From a virus (taxonomy: Duplodnaviria; Heunggongvirae; Uroviricota; Caudoviricetes), in the IMG/VR virus record IMGVR_UViG_2909298281_000002: a DNA stretch of 43,281 nt; one strand, written 5' to 3'. Position numbers and translations under genes: made by a program. Positions 4,996 through 15,636 of this stretch are shown piece after piece (within the stretch, counting starts at the first letter, position 1; each line of letters opens with the position of its first letter). The notes beneath the pieces are model-generated. The model had not been told where the DNA came from and did no database searches. It saw only the letters and a list, made by a program, of their open reading frames with translations.

Positions 4996-5060
4996 AATAA
5001 GTCCTCACTATATAAAGATATTCAGTGATGAGATAAATAATCAGTTAATTAAGAACGATA

Positions 5061-5423
5061 TTAATGACCTGCTGCGCGAAGTTTTCCGTCAGGTTCACCG
5101 GCAAGAGTCAGTAATTGTCCCTGGTCTTCCTGCAGAATAGTCAGGCGACCACCGCGATTGACATACATCGGCGTTTCGGTGGTGTCTTCTTCAGAAATTT
5201 TCCCGCGGTTAGTCGGGCGAACATATGAGAGTTTGTGTTTGATTTTCACACGGTTCTCATCAAACGGTTCGATTTCCAGGTTGAGCGAGACCTTACCTTT
5301 GGTTTTCGTGTTCATCACACCGGAAGCGACTTCACTGAGAACAGCGCCGATTTTGGTTTCAAATACGCCGCCGTCCAGCTCCCCGATAAATGCCTGCACA
5401 TCAGTACTGCGTTCGCTAGCCAT
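5061..5423 (-). CDS. YfdP-like phage protein
   Basis: 120-aa product from the third in-frame ATG (MASERSTDVQAFIGELDGG...), which has a GAGGAG Shine-Dalgarno 8 nt upstream. The track ORF (to 5654) starts at a TTG and runs through structured leader sequence. Confidence 0.75.
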   Translation of the reverse strand: MASERSTDVQAFIGELDGGVFETKIGAVLSEVASGVMNTKTKGKVSLNLEIEPFDENRVKIKHKLSYVRPTNRGKISEEDTTETPMYVNRGGRLTILQEDQGQLLTLAGEPDGKLRAAGH

Positions 5424-6014
5424 TTTGCTGCTCCTCATCATATCGACCCTGCAAGGTCGGTTGGTTTCTCCACAAAACAGAGAAGAACACCTGCGGTGAC
5501 TGCCGCCCGGATGGATTGGGTTATGAGCCCGTCGTCCGGTGATGCTCTTCTCTGTTTTGTAAAAAGAGCGGTACCAGCCGGAAGCAAGGGTACAAACTGG
5601 TACCGCCAAAGCAGTGGCTGTTGTGGTGGGGTTGTCACTCAGGCGTATGGTCAACCTGACAATCCGGTGTCCTCAACGGGGAAAGAGTAACCCCGCCATA
5701 CTTACCGCCGCGCCATTTCGCGGATTACCACAACGCTGAGAGCACTTAGCCAGTTACGGCACCACACTTTGTCGCGGCTCCATAAATGCCCTCATCGTTG
5801 CACCCTGGTCTCTTCCCAGGCGTCAAACCGAATCGCCACGCTGGTTAGGCGTCTTATCAGCATCATCATTGACTTGCACATTCCGGCTACCTGGTTTGTT
5901 TGCTCGAGCAAGGAGTGGATTGTCCCCTTTAACGTCACCAGACCGCTAACGACGCATGTGCCATACGCCGTGTTACAACCAAATTTTGTTTTAATCTTGC
6001 CTGTGTTGTGTTTC

Positions 6015-6056
6015 TTTTAGATACATTATGTATCTCATGGGTACATTGTCAAGTAT
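6015..6056 (-). promoter_or_regulatory. candidate PL-like early-left promoter with overlapping operator palindromes
   Basis: On the minus strand: TTGACA (plus 6047–6052), 17-nt spacer, ATAATG (plus 6024–6029). Overlapped by the palindrome GATACATAATGTATC and a GTACA half-site also present in the cI–cro intergenic region. Confidence 0.45.
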
Positions 6057-6080
6057 AAAAAAACCTGCCGAAGCAGGTTC
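6056..6080 (-). terminator. rho-independent terminator downstream of cI
   Basis: Minus-strand hairpin AACCTGC-ttcg-GCAGGTT followed by a run of seven T, starting 12 nt after the cI stop. Confidence 0.6.
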
Positions 6081-6091
6081 ATAAATATTGA

Positions 6092-6766
6092 TTAGGCCTT
6101 TATTGTGTATCTTCTTGGTTTTCCCGAGAAAATCACTGTACCAATTATAGAGCAATTACCGTTAATCTTAATGTAAGGCTCAGGCCAGTTTGGGTTTAAT
6201 GCTTTGAGATAACGCTGTGTTCCATCTTCTATCAATCGCTTGAAGGTGGTTTCGCCTGTATCGTGCATCAATGCAATAACGTCGTCACCGTGGCAGGCAG
6301 GGACTTCGGGATCAACAAAAATCATGTCTCCAGGGCGGTACTCATCAATCATTGAATCACCAATCACCCGCAAGATATAAGTCATTTCGCCACAGGGTAC
6401 AGGGCAGGGGTACGTTTCTGCTGTGCTCAAATCAACCTCAGAATAGCCAACTTCTTTCCATGCTCCGGCCTGTACCCATGATATGACAGGGACTAACGTT
6501 ATTTGTTTGTTAGTGATTGAAACATCAGGTTTTTTTGTGATGTTCGTTGTCTGGTGTTCTTGATCAAGCCATCCGACAGGCAGGTCGAAACATTTTTCGA
6601 TGTGCCGTGCCATGCTGTCACCGATATTTTTAGTAGCGCCATCCCCCATAAACCTGCTGGTTTGGGTTGGCTCGCGATCAATCATGGTGGCAAAGGATGA
6701 ATTTCCGCCAACACCATCTCTCAGTTTTCTGGCGTTAGACCGCCGGATGTCATGGATTGTTTTCAT
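6092..6766 (-). CDS. cI: CI-type prophage repressor (HTH domain plus LexA-like S24 autopeptidase domain)
   Basis: 224 aa; N-terminal helix-turn-helix; Ala-Gly cleavage site (VQAGAWKE); Ser nucleophile in GDSM and a downstream Lys (TFKRL); divergent from cro across an operator-rich intergenic region; no Shine-Dalgarno, consistent with a leaderless PRM-type message. Confidence 0.9.
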   Translation of the reverse strand: MKTIHDIRRSNARKLRDGVGGNSSFATMIDREPTQTSRFMGDGATKNIGDSMARHIEKCFDLPVGWLDQEHQTTNITKKPDVSITNKQITLVPVISWVQAGAWKEVGYSEVDLSTAETYPCPVPCGEMTYILRVIGDSMIDEYRPGDMIFVDPEVPACHGDDVIALMHDTGETTFKRLIEDGTQRYLKALNPNWPEPYIKINGNCSIIGTVIFSGKPRRYTIKA

Positions 6767-6856
6767 AACGAAATTAAAACCTTTGTACCGATAAGGTACA
6801 AGTATCTTGAAGGTTCATTTCAATCATGTAATATGTATACCGTAGGTACATATTGT
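6767..6856. promoter_or_regulatory. immunity switch region (OR operators with divergent PRM and PR)
   Basis: Perfect palindrome TTGTACC-gataa-GGTACAA (6784–6802) and a second GTACA-containing site near 6832–6853; PR-like TTGAAG (6807–6812), 16-nt spacer, TAATAT (6829–6834) upstream of cro. Confidence 0.6.
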
Positions 6857-7057
6857 ATGAAAGCGTATTGGGACTCTTTAACCAAAGAACAGCAGGGCGA
6901 GTTGGCCGGAAAAGTTGGCTCAACACCTGGCTACTTACGGCTGGTTTTCAATGGTTATAAAAAAGCCAGTTTTGTGCTGGCGAAAAAACTTGAGCAATGC
7001 ACGTCAGGTGCAATTACGAAATCTGACTTAAGACCGGATATCTATCCGAAAGATTAA
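6857..7057 (+). CDS. cro: Cro-like helix-turn-helix regulator (YdaS/Cro family)
   Basis: 66-aa product from the ATG at 6857 (MKAYWDSLTKEQQGELAGKVGSTPGYLRL...); the track ORF from 6752 would overlap the cI start and operators. Divergent from cI. Confidence 0.8.
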   Translation: MKAYWDSLTKEQQGELAGKVGSTPGYLRLVFNGYKKASFVLAKKLEQCTSGAITKSDLRPDIYPKD

Positions 7058-7088
7058 CAGAACACCTTCAATTTTTAACCACAGAACG

Positions 7089-7652
7089 ATGAGGCTAACC
7101 GTGGGTAAGTATCACTGGAAAGTAGAAAAACAGCCTGAGTGGTACGTGAAAGCTGTCAGAAAAACTATCGCAGCGTTGCCGGGTGGTTACGCTGAAGCAG
7201 CTGACTGGCTGGATGTAACAGAGAACGCATTATTTAACCGCCTTCGTGCCGATGGCGATCAGATTTTCCCGCTGGGATGGGCAATGGTTTTACAGCGCGC
7301 GGCTGGCACTCACTACATTGCGGATGCTGTCGCACAGTCTGCTGGTGGGGTGTTCGTATCGCTTCCTGAAATTGAGGAAGTAGAGAACGCCGATATAAAC
7401 CAGCGCCTGCTGGAAGTCATCGAACAGATCGGGAATTACTCAAAGCAGATTCGTTCGGCAATCGAAGATGGGGTCGTGGAGCCACACGAGCAGACAGCAA
7501 TTAATGATGAGTTGTATCTGTCAATTTCGAAGCTCCAAGAGCATGCAGCACTGGTCTACAAAATCTTTTGCGCTCCAGAAAAGAGTGACGCCCGCGAGTG
7601 TGCAGCTCCGGGCGTCGTGGCGTTTTGTGTCTGTGGAGAAACTAACGCATGA
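7089..7652 (+). CDS. early regulatory protein in the cII position (possibly YdaT/CII-like)
   Basis: 187-aa ORF directly after cro; family assignment is by position and weak recall only. Alternative GTG start at 7101 has a better Shine-Dalgarno (GAGG). Confidence 0.65.
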   Translation: MRLTVGKYHWKVEKQPEWYVKAVRKTIAALPGGYAEAADWLDVTENALFNRLRADGDQIFPLGWAMVLQRAAGTHYIADAVAQSAGGVFVSLPEIEEVENADINQRLLEVIEQIGNYSKQIRSAIEDGVVEPHEQTAINDELYLSISKLQEHAALVYKIFCAPEKSDARECAAPGVVAFCVCGETNA

Positions 7653-8485
7653 ACAGTTTAACGGCAAATAACCGTTTGTCGCAACAGCTGGTGGTCAGCG
7701 TCGCTGAACACCTGTTGTTACGGCATGAATGCAGATTACCAAATCACCTGGCTGTAAGTAACCACAGAGAACTTTACCTGACTGTGGGGGGCGAGTTGTG
7801 CAGGAACTTAACCGCTGGTTTAGTGACGGAAGAGGACTTTATGTTCATGTTATTCGTTGGGAGCCAGAAACACAGCGCGTTATCTATCTTCGCAAAGACT
7901 ACCCGCATGAGTGCTTTAGTCCTTTGTGGAAATTCAGGCGTGATTTTATTGAGTGTGAAGGACCACCAGCACATTGATTCTGCCATTCCGGGACGTTACA
8001 CTGTTCAGGCACCTTATAAAGCGGGTGCCGGGATTGGCGTCCTGGAATTGATCAAGGCGATATATGACGCGCCAGCGTCTTTTTTATCGTCCGCATTTGC
8101 TCACATCAAAGTTATGGTGGGCTGGGCGGGGGCATCGAAAGATGCGCCGGTTTCCTTGATCACCGGTTACGCCAACCCCGTTCAGTTCACCACCAGCGAA
8201 ATTGGCGTTTCCGGTGGTGGAAGTATTTCACCGATCAAGGAGGCTGCCATCATGGCTACTGTCCCAGCCCTCACTCGTCTGAATGATGAAGACTTACATA
8301 AACTCAGTTATGTAACAACAGCACTACGTGCTCTGCGCAAGGTAACTCTTTCAGATCCGCAGGCGCATCAACTTCTGGTAGAAACCCTTCTTAACTTGCA
8401 GGCTGAACGTATTCGTTTGGCGGATAAGGCTAATCTTCATATTCACCGTCTCCTGAATATCAGCGGAGGGCATCGTCATGCTTAA
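7649..8485 (+). CDS. hypothetical replication-region protein
   Basis: 278-aa ORF; ATG overlaps the upstream stop (ATGA), indicating translational coupling; no motif recognised. Confidence 0.65.
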   Translation: MNSLTANNRLSQQLVVSVAEHLLLRHECRLPNHLAVSNHRELYLTVGGELCRNLTAGLVTEEDFMFMLFVGSQKHSALSIFAKTTRMSALVLCGNSGVILLSVKDHQHIDSAIPGRYTVQAPYKAGAGIGVLELIKAIYDAPASFLSSAFAHIKVMVGWAGASKDAPVSLITGYANPVQFTTSEIGVSGGGSISPIKEAAIMATVPALTRLNDEDLHKLSYVTTALRALRKVTLSDPQAHQLLVETLLNLQAERIRLADKANLHIHRLLNISGGHRHA

Positions 8486-8714
8486 TCCGTTGATCCTCAA
8501 TATTCACCGTTTACTTCAGCGTAAAAAAATATCAATTCCTACAGTTGGGCAGTGGTACACCACACCTGCAGGGCATGTTCTACGTGTTAGCCTGGTTGAC
8601 CGTGAATGCCAGAAGGTGATTTGTGAACCGCTTGGCCGTAATTACCGCGTCAGTATGCCGCTTATAGCCTTTCGCTCCGGAAAAAACATGAAGCATCTCG
8701 GAGGTGCAGCATGA
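8478..8714 (+). CDS. hypothetical small protein
   Basis: 78-aa ORF with GGAGGG Shine-Dalgarno 8 nt upstream, overlapping both neighbouring genes at start and stop. Confidence 0.55.
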   Translation: MLNPLILNIHRLLQRKKISIPTVGQWYTTPAGHVLRVSLVDRECQKVICEPLGRNYRVSMPLIAFRSGKNMKHLGGAA

Positions 8715-9529
8715 GTATGGAGCTGATGGTTAAAGCGATGAAAATTCGAGTGGGTAATCCATTGCGAAAACTGGTTCTGATCAAGCTGGCTGATAATGCC
8801 AGCGATCAGGGTGAGTGCTGGCCCAGCTACCAGCATATTGCTGACCAGTGCGAGATTAGCAAACGTTCTGTGATGAATCATATTGCGGCCCTTTGTGAGT
8901 CCGGGCTGGTAAAAAAAGTCACCCGGAAAGGTGAAAAAGGTAACTCAAGTAATATCTATCTCCTTCATCTGGATGGTGCAGGAGATTCACTAGGGGGTAG
9001 TGCAAATAATTCACTATCTGGTGCAGCAAATTCACCAGGTAGTGCAGGAGTTGCACTAGGGGGTAGTGCAGGAGATTCACCCAGAACCAGTCACTCTTTT
9101 GAACCAGTCAAAGAACCAGTCAATGAACCAATAGCTGTTGGTGCATCTGCTGATGAGTCTGTGCGAGTTCGTTCAAACCGACCGGAATACTCTCCGGAGT
9201 TTGAGCAGGCATGGCTGGCATATCCCAAACGTGCTGGTGGCAATTCAAAATCTGCAGCCTTCAAAGCCTGGAAAGCCCGTTTGAATGAGGGGGTAAACCC
9301 CGAAACCATGCTGGAAGGTGTGAAACGCTATGCGGGCTGGGTATCTGCGATGGGTAACAGCGGCACACAATTTGTGAAACAGGCTGTCACGTTCTTTGGT
9401 CCGGATCGTCATTTCGAAGAATCCTGGGAAGTTCCTGCGGTATCTGCAGCCAGACGTGAGGACCCGTACTTCAAAGCCAGTTACGACAACGTGGACTACA
9501 GCCAGATCCCGGCAGGATTCAGGGGGTGA
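8711..9529 (+). CDS. replication initiation protein (O-like, N-terminal HTH domain) containing the origin iterons
   Basis: 272 aa; N-terminal winged-HTH replication-initiator-like region (LVLIKLADNASDQGECWPSYQHIADQCEISKRSVMNHIAAL); GGAGGTG Shine-Dalgarno; internal low-complexity linker encoded by direct DNA repeats, as in lambda O. Confidence 0.8.
   Translation: MSMELMVKAMKIRVGNPLRKLVLIKLADNASDQGECWPSYQHIADQCEISKRSVMNHIAALCESGLVKKVTRKGEKGNSSNIYLLHLDGAGDSLGGSANNSLSGAANSPGSAGVALGGSAGDSPRTSHSFEPVKEPVNEPIAVGASADESVRVRSNRPEYSPEFEQAWLAYPKRAGGNSKSAAFKAWKARLNEGVNPETMLEGVKRYAGWVSAMGNSGTQFVKQAVTFFGPDRHFEESWEVPAVSAARREDPYFKASYDNVDYSQIPAGFRG
8976..9131. repeat. putative origin of replication: five about 15-bp iterons plus three GAACCAGTCA repeats
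   Basis: Iterons GTGCAGGAGATTCAC and variants at 8976, 9000, 9021, 9042 and 9066, spaced 21–24 bp; then GAACCAGTCA at 9084, 9101 and 9113; all inside the initiator gene. Confidence 0.7.
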
Positions 9530-9531
9530 TC

Positions 9532-10020
9532 ATGAGTCTTTTGAATGAAGTTCAGAAATTCATTGAAGCCCATCCGGGGTGTACTTCCGGAGACATTGCG
9601 GATGCTTTTGCAGGTTACTCACGGCAGCGCGTTCTGCAGTCAGCAAGCAAGTTACGTCAGAGTGGGCGTGTGGCTCACCGTTGTGAAGGGGATACACGCA
9701 GACATTTCCCGCGCCAGACAAAGATATCGCCGGAGGCGGAACGGCAACCAGTTCGTGAAACCAGACCTGTGCGCAATTTCTATGTCGGCACTAACGACCC
9801 GCGGGAGATTTTATGCCTGACCCGCCAGGCTGAAGAACTGGAGTCCAGGGGCTTATACCGTCGTGCTGCAACGGTGTGGATGGCGGCATTCCGTGAAAGC
9901 CACTCCCAGCCAGAACGAAACAATTTTCTGGCGCGTCGTGAGCAGTGTTTACGGAAAAGCAGCAAGCGCGCTGTATCGAGTGATGAGTGGTATCTGTCAG
10001 GGAATTACGTGGGGGCGTAA
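9532..10020 (+). CDS. PerC-like transcriptional regulator with N-terminal wHTH-like region
   Basis: 162 aa from the ATG at 9532 (AGGGGG Shine-Dalgarno). C-terminal region LYRRAATVWMAAF...RREQCL fits the PerC/Pch family signature as I recall it. No Walker motif, so not a helicase loader. Confidence 0.6.
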   Translation: MSLLNEVQKFIEAHPGCTSGDIADAFAGYSRQRVLQSASKLRQSGRVAHRCEGDTRRHFPRQTKISPEAERQPVRETRPVRNFYVGTNDPREILCLTRQAEELESRGLYRRAATVWMAAFRESHSQPERNNFLARREQCLRKSSKRAVSSDEWYLSGNYVGA

Positions 10021-10346
10021 TGACGACGTTAACTCAATGCCAGCAGCAGGTGCTGGATATGCTGATTTCTTACCAGAAAGAGCGTGGCTTTCCGCCAACC
10101 AATCAGGAGGTGGCAACCATGCTGGGATACCGTTCGGTGAATGCAGCGGTGGAGCATCTTCGCGCACTGGAGAAAAAAGGCGTCATCACGATAAAGCGTG
10201 GTGTGGCCCGGGGGATCACGCTTCATACCGCGGTGAAGGACGACGACAGCGAGGCGGTCGGGATTATCCGCTCACTGCTTGCCGGTGAGGAAAACGCAAG
10301 GCTGCGTGCAACTCACTGGTTACATGAGAGAGGCCTGAAAGTATGA
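10020..10346 (+). CDS. LexA-family DNA-binding-domain protein lacking the peptidase domain
   Basis: 108 aa from the ATG at 10020 (TAATG overlap, GGGGG upstream). Aligns by eye to LexA residues 1–90 (MTTLTQCQQQVLDML..GFPPTNQEVATMLGYRSVNAAVEHLRALEKKGVI...ARGITL) and keeps an Ala-Gly (LLAGEEN), but ends before any S24 catalytic domain. Confidence 0.75.
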   Translation: MTTLTQCQQQVLDMLISYQKERGFPPTNQEVATMLGYRSVNAAVEHLRALEKKGVITIKRGVARGITLHTAVKDDDSEAVGIIRSLLAGEENARLRATHWLHERGLKV

Positions 10347-10732
10347 AGCTGATCCTGCCTTTCCCGCCCAGCGTGAACACCTACTGGCGACACCCCAACA
10401 AAGGGGCATTTGCTGGTAAGAGCCTGATAAGCGCGGCGGGGCGAAAATTTCAGAGCGCGGCGTGCGCAGCAATAGTTGAGCAGTTACGTCGTCTGCCAAA
10501 ACCAACGTCGGCACCTGCTTCAGTGGAGATCGTGTTGTTTCCTCCGGATAACCGGATCCGCGATCTGGACAACTATAACAAGGCGCTGTTTGACGCCCTG
10601 ACCCACGCGGGTGTGTGGGAAGACGACAGCCAGGTGAAAAGAATGCTGGTGGAGTGGGGACCGGTTATCCCGGAAGGGAAGGTCGAGATCACTATCAGTA
10701 AGTACGAGAAAACGGCGGGTGCAGCCGCCTGA
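10343..10732 (+). CDS. rusA: Holliday-junction resolvase RusA
   Basis: 129 aa; RusA-family pattern (PPSVNTYWRH ... RDLDNYNKALFDALTHAGVWEDDSQV); usual position between the replication genes and Q. Confidence 0.9.
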   Translation: MKLILPFPPSVNTYWRHPNKGAFAGKSLISAAGRKFQSAACAAIVEQLRRLPKPTSAPASVEIVLFPPDNRIRDLDNYNKALFDALTHAGVWEDDSQVKRMLVEWGPVIPEGKVEITISKYEKTAGAAA

Positions 10733-10751
10733 TTAAGAGGAGAAACGAAGT

Positions 10752-11549
10752 ATGAATAATCTGATGGTTATTGATGGTATTGAAGTTCGTCGTGATGCTT
10801 ATGGGCGTTACAGCCTGAACGATCTGCACAGGGCTGCTGGTTCTCTGGATAAGCATAAGCCTGCATTCTGGCTCCGCAATGAGCAAACTGAACGTTTAAT
10901 AAGCGAGTTGCAGATTTGCAACTCGGTCAATATAGAACCAGTTAACGTTATTCGTGGCGGAAATAACCAGGGGACGTATGTCTGCAAAGAACTGGTGTAT
11001 GCCTATGCAATGTGGATCAGCCCGTCATTCCATCTGAAGGTGATCCGTACTTTCGACATGGTAACCAGTGCACCGGAAAAATTATCCGGACAGGCTGCTG
11101 ACAAGATGCAGGCTGGTGTGATTCTGCTGGACTTTATGCGCCGGGAATTAAACCTGTCTAACTCTTCAGTGCTTGGAGCCTGTCAGAAACTCCAGGAGGC
11201 TGTTGGCTTACCGAATCTGGCACCGCGCTATGCCATTGATGCTCCTGCTGACGCGCCTGATGGCTCAAGCCGCCCCACGCTGTCACTGAGTGCACTGCTG
11301 AAGCAGTATGGTATCCGCCTGACAGCTAATCAGGCATATCACCAGATGGTGAAGCTGGGGATCGTCGAGCAGCGCGAACGATACAGTCGTACCGCGATTA
11401 ACAACATCAAAAAATTCTGGTCGCTGACAGCGAAAGGCTGCATGTTCGGCAAGAACATCACCAGTCCCGCAAATCCGCGCGAGACGCAGCCGCATTTCTT
11501 CGAATCCCGATTCCCTGAGCTGTTAAAGCTGCTCGATACCGTACATTGA
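10752..11549 (+). CDS. KilA-N domain protein (antirepressor-like)
   Basis: 265 aa with N-terminal KilA-N-like region (IDGIEVRRDAYGRYSLNDLHRAAG...KPAFWLRNEQTERLISEL); AAGAGGAG Shine-Dalgarno. Confidence 0.8.
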   Translation: MNNLMVIDGIEVRRDAYGRYSLNDLHRAAGSLDKHKPAFWLRNEQTERLISELQICNSVNIEPVNVIRGGNNQGTYVCKELVYAYAMWISPSFHLKVIRTFDMVTSAPEKLSGQAADKMQAGVILLDFMRRELNLSNSSVLGACQKLQEAVGLPNLAPRYAIDAPADAPDGSSRPTLSLSALLKQYGIRLTANQAYHQMVKLGIVEQRERYSRTAINNIKKFWSLTAKGCMFGKNITSPANPRETQPHFFESRFPELLKLLDTVH

Positions 11550-11556
11550 GGTGATC

Positions 11557-12546
11557 GTGAGAGCACTACTGACCCCTGAAATTGCCCCGCGTATGGGGAT
11601 CGTATTGTTCAGACCAGGTTCAGAGCTGATGCCCCTATTTATGCAGGGGCGTGTCCTGCTGGAGCCTGAGCCGGAACGTTATTCATCTTTCGCCAGTGGT
11701 GCCGTTCCGGCGGCATCACAACCGCTGGCGGATGATCCTGCCGTTCGGGCCGTGTTCCGCAATGAGGCAGTGATCCGTCGTGCTGGTGGCGTGGAATGTC
11801 TTGAAAGCTGGTTACTTCGTGAAAAAGGCTGTCAGTGGCCTCATTCCGACTGGCACAGCGAGAACATGACCACAATGCGACATGCTCCGGGCGCAATCCG
11901 TCTGTGCTGGCACTGCGATAACCAGCTGCGCGATCAATTCACGGAACGGCTGGAATCAATGGCAACGGATAACTGTGCCCGCTGGGTGTTGTCTGTCGTG
12001 CGTCGGGATCTCGGTTTTGATGATAGTCACGTTGTGACAATGCCGGAACTGTGCTGGTGGCTGATTCGTAATGACCTGGCGGATGCCTTACCGGAAAGTG
12101 CAGCCCGTAAGGCACTTAGATTACCGAAGCCTGTTGTGCCGTCTGCTACCCGGGAAAGTGACCTTGTGCCTTCGGTTCCTGCCACCAGCATCATCCAGGA
12201 TAAAGCGAAAAAGGTGCTGGCGCTGAAAGTGGATCCTGAGTCGCCGGAGTCTTTTATGTTACGCCCAAAACGTCGCCGCTGGGTTAATGAAAAGTACACG
12301 CGCTGGGTTAAGACACAGCCGTGTGCATGTTGTGGAAAGCCCGCTGATGATCCCCACCACCTGATAGGTCACGGTCAGGGTGGAATGGGTACAAAAGCGC
12401 ATGATCTCTTTGTGTTGCCTTTGTGCAGAAAGCATCACGACGAGCTGCATGCGGATACCGTGGCATTTGAAGAGAAGTATGGCTCCCAGCTGGAGCTGAT
12501 ATTTCGTTTTATCGATCGTGCGCTGGCAATTGGCGTGCTGGCCTGA
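11557..12546 (+). CDS. DUF968-domain protein (YdfU-like, Cys/His-rich C-terminus)
   Basis: C-terminal CACCGK...HHLIGHGQGG...CRKHHDELH motif typical of DUF968 proteins. Start uncertain: GTG at 11557 has GAGG 6 nt upstream; the track uses GTG at 11551. Confidence 0.75.
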   Translation: MRALLTPEIAPRMGIVLFRPGSELMPLFMQGRVLLEPEPERYSSFASGAVPAASQPLADDPAVRAVFRNEAVIRRAGGVECLESWLLREKGCQWPHSDWHSENMTTMRHAPGAIRLCWHCDNQLRDQFTERLESMATDNCARWVLSVVRRDLGFDDSHVVTMPELCWWLIRNDLADALPESAARKALRLPKPVVPSATRESDLVPSVPATSIIQDKAKKVLALKVDPESPESFMLRPKRRRWVNEKYTRWVKTQPCACCGKPADDPHHLIGHGQGGMGTKAHDLFVLPLCRKHHDELHADTVAFEEKYGSQLELIFRFIDRALAIGVLA

Positions 12547-12575
12547 TTTTGTGGAGAATTTTGTGGAGAAGGTTG

Positions 12576-12926
12576 ATGCGTGATATGTATGAAGTATTGG
12601 ACCTCTGGGGAGCATGGGCTGCAGCAGATAACAGTGGTGTGGACTGGCAGCCTGTTGCTGCAGGGTTTAAAGGTTTACTACCTCATGGAAAGAAAACACG
12701 CCAACAATGCGATGATGATGAAGGAATCATGATTGACAGCTGTGTTGCGCGATTGCGGAAATATAAGCCAGAAGAATATGAACTGATCATTGCTCACTTT
12801 GTTATCGGTATTTCACTCCGTTCAATAGCAAAGAAACGGAAATGCTCTGACGGGTCAATCAGAAAACAACTTCAAGCAGCAATAGGAGTGATTGAAGGTA
12901 TTTTGTTGATTATTAAGCCCCTGTAG
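12576..12926 (+). CDS. late-gene antiterminator Q (QuuD-like)
   Basis: 116 aa from the ATG at 12576 (GGAGAAGG Shine-Dalgarno); LDLWGAWAAADNSGVDWQPVAAGFKGL...CDDDEG pattern matches the DLP12 QuuD-type family as recalled. Confidence 0.85.
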   Translation: MRDMYEVLDLWGAWAAADNSGVDWQPVAAGFKGLLPHGKKTRQQCDDDEGIMIDSCVARLRKYKPEEYELIIAHFVIGISLRSIAKKRKCSDGSIRKQLQAAIGVIEGILLIIKPL

Positions 12927-12934
12927 GGCTTAAT
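12912..12934. terminator. convergent-gene hairpin ATTAAGCCC-ctgta-GGGCTTAAT spanning the stops of Q and the cassette membrane gene
   Basis: Perfect 9-bp inverted repeat seen directly; no U-run on either side, so terminator function is uncertain. Confidence 0.35.
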
Positions 12935-13514
12935 AATTCATATGAATTCTGTTTCCGAGATAATATAATCCAAAGAAAGTTGATACTAAGAGTTGCCAAA
13001 CGAGGAAAGTAAATACAACAGTATAAACCATTAAAACAATACTGTTTTGATAGACATTGATTAATGGTGAAAATATAGCATTAAGTATTATTATAACAAT
13101 GCTTAATGCTGTTAAAAAAGAGAATAGCATGCAAAGAAATAAGCGTCTGGTCAGAACCTCCTCTGAATTTACTACTTTTCCATTTTCTTTTGTTACTTTT
13201 ATTTCAATAGAGGCATTTCTTTCATTGCTAATCAATGGTAAATCAATCTCAGCTCTATTGAAAGTTGCTATGGCGGCCAGAGCGGCAATATAAAACCCTG
13301 GTAGGTTAGAGATAAATGAAACGATTGATTTAATGAAACCATTGTCATCAAATAAATCTTTGACAGGGATTTTTAATAGAATGAAAAGTACTGCTGTGAT
13401 AGAAGTAAGTAGAATTGGTGCTACCCAATCATATGCAGCTTTGCCGCTAATACCTTTAATAAAAAGATATCCAAACGGCTTGCCTAGATGAGAGAAAACT
13501 GAAAGTATTGGCAT
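12930..13514 (-). CDS. predicted four-helix integral membrane protein (second gene of the accessory cassette)
   Basis: 194 aa; ATG with GAGG 8 nt upstream, 7 nt after the upstream stop; four hydrophobic segments (about residues 25–47, 60–85, 125–150, 155–185); about 30% GC against about 50% for the flanking phage DNA. Confidence 0.8.
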   Translation of the reverse strand: MPILSVFSHLGKPFGYLFIKGISGKAAYDWVAPILLTSITAVLFILLKIPVKDLFDDNGFIKSIVSFISNLPGFYIAALAAIATFNRAEIDLPLISNERNASIEIKVTKENGKVVNSEEVLTRRLFLCMLFSFLTALSIVIIILNAIFSPLINVYQNSIVLMVYTVVFTFLVWQLLVSTFFGLYYLGNRIHMNY

Positions 13515-13521
13515 AATAACC

Positions 13522-14544
13522 TCACATCAAATCTATCATTTTCACAACAAACTCTAGTTCAATTTTAACATATGAATCCTTCAGGCGCGAATTAAAGTTA
13601 TCGATAATGCTTTTCTTAATAAATGTTTTTTCTAAATTATTAAGATTGATGTTTGAGGTTTTGAAATCAACCTGCCTTGGTTTATTTGTTTCAGGATCTT
13701 GGAATTTAACCTTTAATTTATCATAACCACCATTCATTTTTTTATTGAAATGAGATGCTACATTTTTAATCCATCCAATAACATTGTCACCATGATTTGG
13801 AAGTAATTTTAATGTACTTTCAGTCGGAATGTAAGGTGAATTAACATCAGGAGCATTAATTGTTCCGAATTGATCCTTGACTAATATGACATCTGATAAT
13901 CCTTTTTGGCTTATTTTATTAAAAAGCTCCTTGTCTAACATTCCTGTAAATTCAAATATTGGTTTGTATCGTATTTTTACTTCTTTTTTTGATGTTGTAG
14001 AAATAACGTTAGTTGGATGTTTTGCGGTAAATAAGTCTTCATTGTCTTTCGCTACTTCAAAGAGAATTTTGTCTAAAAAACTATTTAACCGGGCCGTAGA
14101 TACACCTGGGGTAGATGTACAAATCATATCATAGGTTCTTTTATTTCCATTTAATGATATGACAACATAGGTAGAAACTTCATAGCCTTCACCTTGTTCA
14201 TATTTTGGTTGGATTTCAACGCGTTCATTAGTATTTGTATTTTTTACAACGGTAGTACTTCCATTTTTATCAACACTATTAATAAGAAGGACAATATGCG
14301 TGGGTGAGTTATCTGGAAGTAAAGGATAAAGTTGTACATCTTGGAGAGTAACTACAATATTCCCAGAATCATATGAATGAACGAGTCCCTTTTGTTTAAC
14401 AATCAATGGGGCAAGCATGTACATTTCCGGAACAGGACATATACACTGGGCTTTTACCTCTTGTGTTGCCTTGGTTCTAAACTTTGTGTCAATGGTCAGA
14501 CTATGATGAGTAACGAGTCTTTCGCTAGCATTTAATTTTGCCAT
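13522..14544 (-). CDS. hypothetical soluble protein (first gene of the accessory cassette), no recognisable domain
   Basis: 340-aa ORF, ATG at 14544; no Walker, HxD or nuclease motif seen; Lys/Asn-rich and AT-rich codon usage; tightly coupled to the downstream membrane gene. Confidence 0.8.
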   Translation of the reverse strand: MAKLNASERLVTHHSLTIDTKFRTKATQEVKAQCICPVPEMYMLAPLIVKQKGLVHSYDSGNIVVTLQDVQLYPLLPDNSPTHIVLLINSVDKNGSTTVVKNTNTNERVEIQPKYEQGEGYEVSTYVVISLNGNKRTYDMICTSTPGVSTARLNSFLDKILFEVAKDNEDLFTAKHPTNVISTTSKKEVKIRYKPIFEFTGMLDKELFNKISQKGLSDVILVKDQFGTINAPDVNSPYIPTESTLKLLPNHGDNVIGWIKNVASHFNKKMNGGYDKLKVKFQDPETNKPRQVDFKTSNINLNNLEKTFIKKSIIDNFNSRLKDSYVKIELEFVVKMIDLM

Positions 14545-14581
14545 GAAATCATCCGATTATGATTTTTCGATTTATTTGTTA

Positions 14582-14610
14582 ATCTTACAAAAACGCTAAC
14601 GCGTACGCAA
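14582..14610 (-). promoter_or_regulatory. candidate sigma70 promoter for the accessory cassette
   Basis: Minus strand TTGCGT (plus 14605–14610), 17-nt spacer, TAAGAT (plus 14582–14587), about 35 nt upstream of the 340-aa gene start. Confidence 0.35.
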
Positions 14611-14655
14611 AAATTATTGTATCGTGTTAAGAGTGGTTACTTCGCCACACAGCTT

Positions 14656-14685
14656 AAACCCGCCGTCGAGCGGGTTTTGTCGTTT
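14656..14685 (+). terminator. tR'-like intrinsic terminator in the late leader (PR'/qut expected just upstream)
   Basis: AAACCCGC-cgtcga-GCGGGTTT hairpin followed by TGTCGTTTCT, about 145 nt upstream of the holin; analogous to the lambda 6S terminator that Q overrides. No PR' hexamers could be pinned. Confidence 0.5.
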
Positions 14686-14829
14686 CTGGGGCTGGGGATT
14701 CGTTGGTCCTGGTCTATTCCGCAGTTATCCATTGGTTCGGCTTCTTTGACGTTTCCGCTTCTAATTTGCTGTACATGATGTTCCCTCAATTTGCACCTGC
14801 TGTATCAGCGAGGTGAGAGATAACTACAA

Positions 14830-15156
14830 ATGCCTCATAACCCAAATACCTGGCTGGAGTTGTTCCAGAGCTGGTGGTGTGGAGACACACCGCTGGGCGC
14901 AGTGATTATGTCGATCGTTATGGCTGGCTTGCGCATTGCCTATTTTGGCGGTGGTGGTGGCTGGAAACGAAAAACGCTCGAGATTTTGCTCTGTGGTGCT
15001 CTGACGCTGACTTTTGCATCCGCTCTTGAGTATGTCGGATGGCCTAAATCTCTTTCTGTTGCCATTGGTGGCGGCGTTGGGCTGATCGGGGTCGATGCTA
15101 TTCGTGGGGCTGCAATGAGAGTAATCGGTAATAAGTTTGGTGGCTCTAAGGAGTAA
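14830..15156 (+). CDS. holin (lambda S family)
   Basis: 108 aa with three hydrophobic segments and a charged C-terminus; first gene of the lysis cassette, directly upstream of the endolysin. Confidence 0.85.
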   Translation: MPHNPNTWLELFQSWWCGDTPLGAVIMSIVMAGLRIAYFGGGGGWKRKTLEILLCGALTLTFASALEYVGWPKSLSVAIGGGVGLIGVDAIRGAAMRVIGNKFGGSKE

Positions 15157-15159
15157 TTT

Positions 15160-15636
15160 ATGCAGGTACTAAATTCCCAGCGTAAAGCTTTCCTGGATAT
15201 GGTGGCATGGTCAGAGGGAACGGATAACGGGCGACAACCGACACGTAACCACGGTTATGACGTTATTGTCGGTGGAGAACTCTTCACTGATTACTCCGAT
15301 CACCCTCGCAAGCTTGTCACGCTAAACCCGAAACTCAAATCAACAGCTGCAGGCCGTTATCAACTTCTTTCGCGCTGGTGGGATGCTTACCGCAAGCAGT
15401 TAGGGCTGACAGACTTCTCTCCTAAAAGCCAGGATGCTGTTGCATTACAGCAGATTAAAGAGCGTGGCGCTTTACCGATGATTGATCGCGGCGATATTCG
15501 TCAGGCTATCGATCGTTGCAGCAATATCTGGGCGTCGTTACCTGGTGCAGGTTACGGTCAGTATGAACATAAAATCGGTGACCTGATTTCCCGGTTTAAA
15601 GAGGCTGGTGGGGTGGTAAATGAAGTTGAGCTATAA
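15160..15636 (+). CDS. R: endolysin (lambda R-type lytic transglycosylase)
   Basis: 158 aa, near-identical to lambda R as recalled (QRKAFLDM.AWSEGTDNGRQ.TRNHGYDVIVGGELFTDYSDHPRKLVTLNPKLKST); AAGGAG Shine-Dalgarno. Confidence 0.95.
   Translation: MQVLNSQRKAFLDMVAWSEGTDNGRQPTRNHGYDVIVGGELFTDYSDHPRKLVTLNPKLKSTAAGRYQLLSRWWDAYRKQLGLTDFSPKSQDAVALQQIKERGALPMIDRGDIRQAIDRCSNIWASLPGAGYGQYEHKIGDLISRFKEAGGVVNEVEL

Follow-up and report, generated by a model that had tools for sequence, protein, structure and literature searches.

A small gene in the prophage represented by the virus record IMGVR_UViG_2909298281_000002 (Caudoviricetes) encodes a 108-amino-acid protein that combines a LexA-type DNA-binding domain with a short helical tail and has no peptidase domain. 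The whole stretch of DNA analysed, 43,281 nucleotides in length, is referred to here as the window. We give about even chances to the interpretation we prefer, namely that the protein is a regulator, dimeric and insensitive to RecA, which binds DNA sequence-specifically and is produced in lytic growth, with an operator of its own that lies outside the immunity and late modules of the phage and most plausibly in the host. The fold, domain content, intactness, selective constraint, synteny and distribution of the gene are established. The gene and the parts of its product are the following.

10020..10346 (+), gene for the LexA-type DNA-binding protein, an open reading frame (ORF) from ATG at 10020 to TGA at 10344-10346 encoding 108 amino acids (SfV orf42 family; PHROG 362).
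10018..10022 (+), TAATG, the overlap in the sequence between the stop codon of the PerC-like gene and the start codon of the LexA-like gene.
10343..10346 (+), ATGA, the overlap in the sequence between the stop codon of the LexA-like gene and the start codon of rusA.
10020..10226 (+), winged helix-turn-helix of the LexA type, residues 1-69 (helices 6-22, 28-35 and 40-52; strands 56-58 and 66-68).
10137..10175 (+), recognition helix VNAAVEHLRALEK (in LexA, PNAAEEHLKALAR), residues 40-52, located by the alignments.
10227..10244 (+), acidic, low-confidence linker TAVKDD, residues 70-75, with a predicted local distance difference test score (pLDDT) <50 at residues 72-75 and a length that varies across the family alignment.
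10245..10328 (+), two-helix hairpin tail, residues 76-103 (helix 76-87, turn 88-92, helix 93-103), delineated by the AlphaFold2 model, family conservation and the ratio of non-synonymous to synonymous substitution rates (dN/dS).
10281..10286 (+), Ala88-Gly89 dipeptide in the predicted turn between the two helices, not conserved in the family.

Judged from sequence comparison, the resemblance of the 108-residue protein to LexA far exceeds chance. Residues 1-65 cover the whole of the Pfam family PF01726 (LexA_DNA_bind; profile positions 1-65 of 65, E 2.9e-19, 69 bits against a gathering cutoff of 23.7), and the top match in the PDB by phmmer is 1lea, the E. coli LexA DNA-binding domain (E 6.9e-16). 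Residues 1-69 align with E. coli LexA without gaps, 35 of the 69 positions being identical (51%). These matches bear out a preliminary description of the gene, which had recognized in its product LexA's N-terminal DNA-binding domain. The score against the lexA equivalog TIGR00498 of NCBIfam (70.8 bits) falls under the curated cutoff of 110.95 because profile positions 1-91 of 203 alone are matched. That alignment stops where the catalytic part of LexA is still to come, the chain ends at residue 108, and Pfam gives no Peptidase_S24 match in the protein; as had been claimed, the S24 catalytic domain is missing, and with it the Ser119-Lys156 dyad and the C-terminal peptidase and dimerisation domain. 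The protein is basic, with an isoelectric point of 9.3.

The preliminary description had further pointed to a retained Ala-Gly dipeptide, the pair at which LexA would be cleaved. The dipeptide is indeed present: LLAGE of the window protein is weakly aligned with VAAGE of LexA by HMMER and hhalign, which places A88-G89 on A84-G85. Its meaning as a cleavage site did not survive comparison with the relatives, in which residues 88-89 read AN, VG, ER, RK, GG, DD, CS, EE, EL or DT, within motifs that include LLANEE, LLVGEE, VERE, IAEE and LTRK. The pair also lies in a predicted turn, and AGEP of E. coli LexA is AGEE in the window protein, the proline being replaced by glutamate. On the alignments and the model, Ala88-Gly89 is not maintained as a cleavage site and the VAAGEP context is not reproduced, although the dipeptide may be a relic of a full-length lexA ancestor. 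With no S24 domain and no conserved cleavage site, RecA-stimulated autocleavage cannot switch the protein off. The earlier proposal that it would be insensitive to such self-cleavage is upheld in the sense that cleavage in cis is impossible when the S24 domain is absent.

Descent from a full-length lexA would also fit a non-functional remnant, that is, what is left, truncated and decaying, of the 5' part of a lexA gene or S24-type repressor gene after its capture, and the weak LexA alignment that reaches into the hinge and cleavage region (AGE on AGE in HMMER and hhalign) is what such a remnant might display. This reading, to which we give next to no credence, is refuted by sequence data on intactness and selection. 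Residues 1-108 match PHROG 362, a phage 'transcriptional repressor' family of ~106 amino acids, from end to end and at the same length (profile positions 1-106 of 106, E 1.1e-59). Relatives were gathered by an exhaustive HMMER search of 1.84 billion representatives, and those bearing the tail, found down to ~40% identity in Cronobacter, Enterobacter, Klebsiella, Salmonella, Atlantibacter and Citrobacter, are 105-135 amino acids long. The few longer ones represent N-terminal extensions or apparent fusions to neighbouring genes, and no tail-bearing relative in that search has an S24 domain. The dN/dS values are 0.09-0.24 for the whole gene, with the winged helix and the tail each constrained (0.05-0.39 for the tail). 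They derive, where dS could be estimated, from comparisons with the common allele of E. coli, 96% identical in protein, and with alleles from Citrobacter and Salmonella; between the window and the 65%-identical Citrobacter allele dS is saturated. Values obtained from 80 IMG/VR loci were set aside as biased low, because these loci had been picked by protein identity. Intact copies occur in 2222 E. coli genomes, and the carriers of the gene include the plaque-forming phages SfV, SfII, mEp460 and Ayreon and Stx2 (Shiga toxin 2) phages. By these sequence criteria it is an intact gene under purifying selection, and not the truncated pseudogene of a longer gene that the preliminary description had allowed for.

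A structure model and an alignment to LexA were both proposed as checks in the preliminary description. At 51% identity, the modelled winged helix superposes on DNA-bound E. coli LexA at 1.0 Å. A single-sequence AlphaFold model was poor (pLDDT 54) and was replaced by an AlphaFold2 monomer model built from a 40-sequence family alignment, with a mean pLDDT of 83.4 and a predicted template modelling score (pTM) of 0.58. Beyond the linker this model predicts the helical hairpin, in which, across the same alignment, A97 and L101 are invariant and A93 nearly so. Neither a sequence-profile search nor a fold search found a counterpart of the tail in the PDB, and on present sequence evidence the hairpin is specific to the SfV orf42-like family. 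Other repressors that join a winged helix to C-terminal helices (BlaI/MecI, the N-terminal part of MntR/DtxR, Rrf2 and MarR-like proteins) give weaker fold matches; for all of these, at 10-25% identity and with a high root-mean-square deviation once the tail is included, the tail is not homologous and the likeness is an architectural analogy only. The hairpin most likely pairs two subunits onto a palindromic operator. LexA itself dimerises through its C-terminal domain. A variant suggested earlier, in which the protein would heterodimerise poorly with LexA and act as a decoy, is unlikely because that domain is absent here, and the protein has a helical tail of its own.

The surroundings of the gene bear on where its target may lie. 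The window holds a lambdoid, SfV-like prophage at tRNA-Thr (1369-1444), adjoining proA, with an integrase gene at 1459-2622 and a switch module of CI (S24), Cro and CII-like genes at 6092-7652. Rightward of the switch, the order is replication genes, PerC-like gene, LexA-like gene, rusA, KilA-N gene, DUF968/HNH gene, Q (12549-12926) and lysis genes. The TAATG and ATGA overlaps at the two ends of the LexA-like gene agree with the earlier statement that it is translationally coupled between the PerC-like gene and rusA. Its neighbours in the block, counted over 88 related loci, are as follows.

9526..10020 (+), PerC-family (yfdN-like) gene, the first gene of the block (PF06069, E 6.6e-10; in 80/88 loci).
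10343-10732 (+), rusA (PF05866, E 6.1e-15; in 85/88 loci).
10752-11549 (+), KilA-N gene, identified by Pfam (in 83/88 loci).
11551-12546 (+), DUF968/HNH gene, identified by Pfam (in 85/88 loci).

The block from the PerC-like gene to DUF968 is nearly constant over the 88 loci and almost without non-coding DNA. The modules that flank it vary: CI is present at ~100%, 42% or 35% identity or with no detectable homology, the replication protein at ~99% or ~30%, and Q at ~85%, at 42-55%, or undetected within the flank, so that the block accompanies three or more immunity types, two replication types and three or more Q types. A regulator whose targets lie in the phage is normally passed on along with them. 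Because this block moves separately from the modules for immunity, replication and Q and has hardly any non-coding DNA, the target of the protein is unlikely to be the immunity switch or a late promoter. No promoter-like site was found directly upstream of the LexA-like gene, which, together with its position in the rightward delayed-early (nin-like) operon, suggests that it would be transcribed from the early rightward promoter, and only after induction or infection.

The synteny is similar in Citrobacter, Salmonella and Cronobacter, where a methylase gene or two often lie directly upstream, and an uncalled PerC-like ORF also lies 5' of the 65%-identical Citrobacter homologue. Klebsiella prophages have dinI and a small ORF, then the LexA-like gene, and after it a second small ORF and DUF968. 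At the 10020 junction, most sequenced relatives have a 650-bp dam methylase gene between the PerC-like and LexA-like genes (SfV, locus L002, 4495-5148; locus L091, 2351-3004), which is absent from the window and from Ayreon; Salmonella relatives have two larger methylase genes there. Farther along the block, 124 nt over the 3' end of rusA and the start of the KilA-N gene (10637-10760) are identical to a Citrobacter prophage that is otherwise ~82% identical, probably marking a recent recombination junction.

This constant company could mean that the protein is an accessory DNA-binding subunit of a recombination or DNA-metabolism module, tethering or targeting RusA, the DUF968 Orf-HNH protein or the Dam methylase. 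The synteny with Dam upstream and RusA downstream is tight and often overlapping, and linkage to DUF968 persists down to the 43%-identical Klebsiella clade. A LexA-type domain fused to the C-terminal HNH part of DUF968 also exists (P0158, 240 amino acids), and DUF968 has been reported fused to various recombination proteins (PMC4118853). P0158, however, is a singleton cluster from one 401-kb contig, most simply explained by a deletion between neighbouring genes, and was rejected as a 'Rosetta-stone' link to DUF968 because its cluster has one member. Synteny is itself weak evidence in nin-like regions, which crowd unrelated genes, and the conserved S39 and N41 of the family point to the base-specific reading typical of regulators. 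We therefore regard the accessory-subunit explanation as improbable.

Which sequence the protein may read is the point on which a regulator with its own operator has to be weighed against a surrogate of LexA. The residues with which LexA contacts DNA are Ser39, Asn41, Ala42, Glu44 and Glu45 (PMC3091678). The window protein keeps four of these five (S39, N41, A42 and E45) and has valine for E44; P40 of LexA is likewise valine here. Set against a background identity of 51%, four matches in five are suggestive but not significant (binomial P ~0.2). Across the family, S39, N41, R64, G65 and I66, in the recognition helix and the wing, are invariant, whereas positions 40, 44 and 45 vary between clades, with L, D, T, I or G at position 45 elsewhere. 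The helix reads VNAAVEH in the window, SNAVLLH in Klebsiella, PNAATDM in Cronobacter, PNAANDH in Atlantibacter and QNTVFIH in one Salmonella sequence. The hosts of these clades are all Enterobacteriaceae and use the same SOS box as E. coli. Since the contact positions vary among hosts with a common SOS box, binding to that box is probably not the shared function of the family, although the clade of the window could still bind SOS boxes despite this variation.

That the protein is a non-cleavable repressor acting on CTGT-N8-ACAG, the main idea of the preliminary description, is an explanation we consider unlikely while taking it seriously. In SOS-induced cells undergoing lytic growth, such a repressor would close the SOS regulon of the host again, wholly or in part; recA, sulA, SOS-induced toxins and LexA-controlled antirepressors of rival prophages are examples. 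The more specific proposal, a RecA-proof LexA surrogate that occupies host SOS boxes or a subset of them once LexA has been lost after induction, shutting recA and other SOS genes for the benefit of the phage, is rather doubtful. The repressor explanation draws on the 51% identity, the 1.0 Å fit to DNA-bound LexA and the retained S39, N41, A42 and E45. The gene is also not linked to any phage regulatory module, as would suit a host target, and SOS-like sites in the prophage occur at chance level, which would place any such target in the host. A further point is the Klebsiella homologue, which lies ~340 bp downstream of a dinI gene bearing a perfect SOS box. Engineered fusions of LexA(1-87) to heterologous dimerisation domains such as a zipper reportedly repress SOS-box reporters, which argues that the DNA-binding domain and a suitable dimeriser can suffice. 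On the other side stand the two substitutions by valine at positions 44 and 40, the lack of significance of the contact matches over background and the divergence of position 45 in clades whose hosts share the SOS box. An altered dimer geometry would, moreover, shift the spacing of the half-sites, and the example of the gp6 protein, from phage GIL01, demonstrates that drift can take a captured LexA domain to another site (PMC6182141).

In the Klebsiella prophage of locus L083, the canonical SOS box TACTGTTTATTTATACAGTA is at 5385-5404, just 5' of dinI. The position of dinI ~340 bp upstream suggests that the LexA-like homologue there may be SOS-inducible. In the window, no SOS box was found upstream of the LexA-like gene. 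With at most one mismatch, CTGT-N8-ACAG occurs 20 times in the window against 14.7 expected, which is at chance level, and perfect CTGT-Nx-ACAG sites (x = 0-16) number 0-3 per spacing against 0.65 expected, the expected counts of CTGT-Nx-ACAG having been computed analytically. The sole perfect CTGT-N8-ACAG of the window, at 7752-7767 (CTGTAAGTAACCACAG), lies inside a 278-amino-acid ash-like ORF (7649-8485) and was treated as a chance occurrence; in E. coli D10 the annotation gives the matching stretch as non-coding DNA that lies upstream of a DUF4222 gene. At the start of the same ash-like ORF is an imperfect 24-nt inverted repeat (7677-7725; 79% complementary, 1-nt gap), which lies partly in a run of 72 nt that is identical in a Citrobacter prophage. 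A search for short inverted repeats in 5000-15200 gave no convincing operator. Comparison with the diverged Citrobacter and Salmonella loci, made for unusually conserved stretches, gave no clear cis element, and the long runs of identity to these loci resemble mosaic recombination junctions.

We therefore return to the preferred interpretation, a regulator with its own operator. The LexA-derived winged helix would read DNA sequence through its third helix, a short flexible linker would join it to the family-specific hairpin, and the hairpin would dimerise the protein for binding to a palindromic operator. A lysogen would not express the protein, which would appear in the delayed-early phase once induction or infection has taken place. 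The operator would most probably be the protein's own, related to the SOS box or to an SOS half-site and not necessarily identical to it, as in GIL01 gp6, and the target would more likely be in the host chromosome, or in coding sequence of the block, than in the phage switch or a late promoter. We infer that the tail dimerises the protein, as well as when the gene is expressed and what and where its operator is. Several points weigh against this interpretation. The four retained contact residues mean that the operator could be the canonical SOS box, and the in silico searches of the prophage yielded no operator. Dimerisation is read from a monomer model with a pTM of 0.58 and without structural precedent for the tail, and the delayed-early timing is deduced from gene order.

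A studied precedent is gp6 of GIL01, a tectivirus of Bacillus thuringiensis. This truncated homologue of LexA shares 44% identity with the LexA of its host, binds the palindrome GaCACAnnTGTGaC, which overlaps the -35 element of late promoter P3, activates P3 and has a conserved Lys38 (PMC6182141). It is the sole characterised truncated LexA of a phage, and its site is unlike that of the host LexA. Both gp6, compared here by its published description, and the window protein are phage LexA DNA-binding domains without a catalytic domain, at 44% and 51% identity to host or E. coli LexA, respectively. The product of an early gene, gp6 acts in lytic development, as the window protein probably does. 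The two differ in that gp6 is essentially the winged helix alone, whereas the window protein adds a helical tail, and in that the tectivirus infects a Gram-positive host and has no CI-type repressor, whereas the window phage has a Gram-negative host, a CI/Cro switch and a Q antiterminator for its late genes. The window protein thus joins a known kind, the phage LexA DNA-binding domains without protease, and is set apart from gp6 by the hairpin, the lambdoid nin setting and the Gram-negative hosts.

Relative to E. coli LexA (1lea/1leb, 3jso), the window protein has a helical hairpin in place of the hinge and cleavage region, and its gene lies in a phage delayed-early operon, whereas lexA is autoregulated from a promoter with an SOS box. 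The CI-type repressor of the same prophage (6092-6766, ymfK-like) belongs, like the 108-residue protein, to the LexA/CI superfamily in the broad sense; it possesses an S24 autopeptidase (Pfam E 1.5e-26) and forms a RecA-sensitive switch, whereas the smaller protein has a LexA-type winged helix and no peptidase. Homologues of the PHROG 362 type (WP_000210170.1, SfV orf42 and those of SfII, SfIV, mEp460, cdtI and Stx2a, Stx2c and Stx2k phages) are 95-100% identical, of the same length and located before rusA. They show no structural difference, many of these phages have the 650-bp dam gene that is absent from the window, and their annotations are by similarity only.

The distribution of the gene is wide. 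A 100%-identical copy in E. coli D10 and many other strains is deposited as WP_000210170.1, 'LexA family transcriptional regulator', so that the sequence feature is already in the databases under a description matching that of the preliminary reading; NCBI labels a few family members 'Rrf2 family'. By megablast, the gene is found in 2233 of 5426 complete E. coli genomes (41%). It also occurs in ~60 sequenced phages, among them SfV (orf42), SfII, SfIV, mEp460, Ayreon, cdtI and Stx2a, Stx2c and Stx2k phages, with more distant copies in mEp390 and Klebsiella phages. A literature search, with most subscription journals outside its coverage, found no functional study of the enterobacterial family. 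In CPS-53, the matching cryptic prophage of E. coli K-12 (locus L092, 8113-8882), yfdN (PerC-like) and the truncated methylase gene yfdM are followed by tail-fibre remnants, a deletion having removed the LexA-like gene, rusA, DUF968 and Q; the neglect of the gene may be due in part to this loss from K-12.

Viral proteins in general often include LexA-type domains that stand alone. Four proteins (P0132, P0133, P0149 and P0156) have two tandem LexA-type DNA-binding domains per chain and no S24 domain, and judged by this domain layout could be single-chain pseudo-dimers.

An assignment of the LexA-like protein to a defence system was rejected, PADLOC having given a marginal match at the level of the winged helix (E 3.6e-4) to a CARF-associated model. 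Elsewhere in the window, an AT-rich two-gene cassette on the minus strand (12930-14544; 194 and 340 amino acids) lies between Q (12549-12926) and the holin gene (14830-15156), in the position that the stx genes occupy in Stx phages. Its proteins match the PADLOC candidate defence system PDC-M53 (subunit B, E 1.8e-54; subunit A, E 1.6e-32), and homologues of the cassette occur in only 2-3 of the 88 related loci. Between this defence-like cassette and the holin gene is a terminator-like hairpin (14656-14677, AAACCCGCCGTCGAGCGGGTTT) followed by a T-run (TGTCGTTTCT), at the expected site of the Q-dependent late terminator.

Should the protein act on SOS boxes or other promoters of the host, the DNA-damage response would be rewired at prophage induction by a prophage gene of very wide occurrence, with a bearing on Shiga-toxin release, competition between co-resident prophages and antibiotic-induced mutagenesis; its carriers include Shigella serotype-converting phages and Stx2 phages. 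Were it a surrogate of LexA, the phage might benefit, for example, by curbing the induction of rival prophages, SOS-induced toxins or defence functions, and the protein would be a natural counterpart of the engineered repressors in which the LexA DNA-binding domain is joined to a zipper. If it has an operator of its own, it would be the second independent case, after GIL01 gp6, of a captured host LexA domain that has been retargeted, here with a new dimerisation tail. Phages that grow on K-12, such as Ayreon, carry the gene, which makes its function readily testable.

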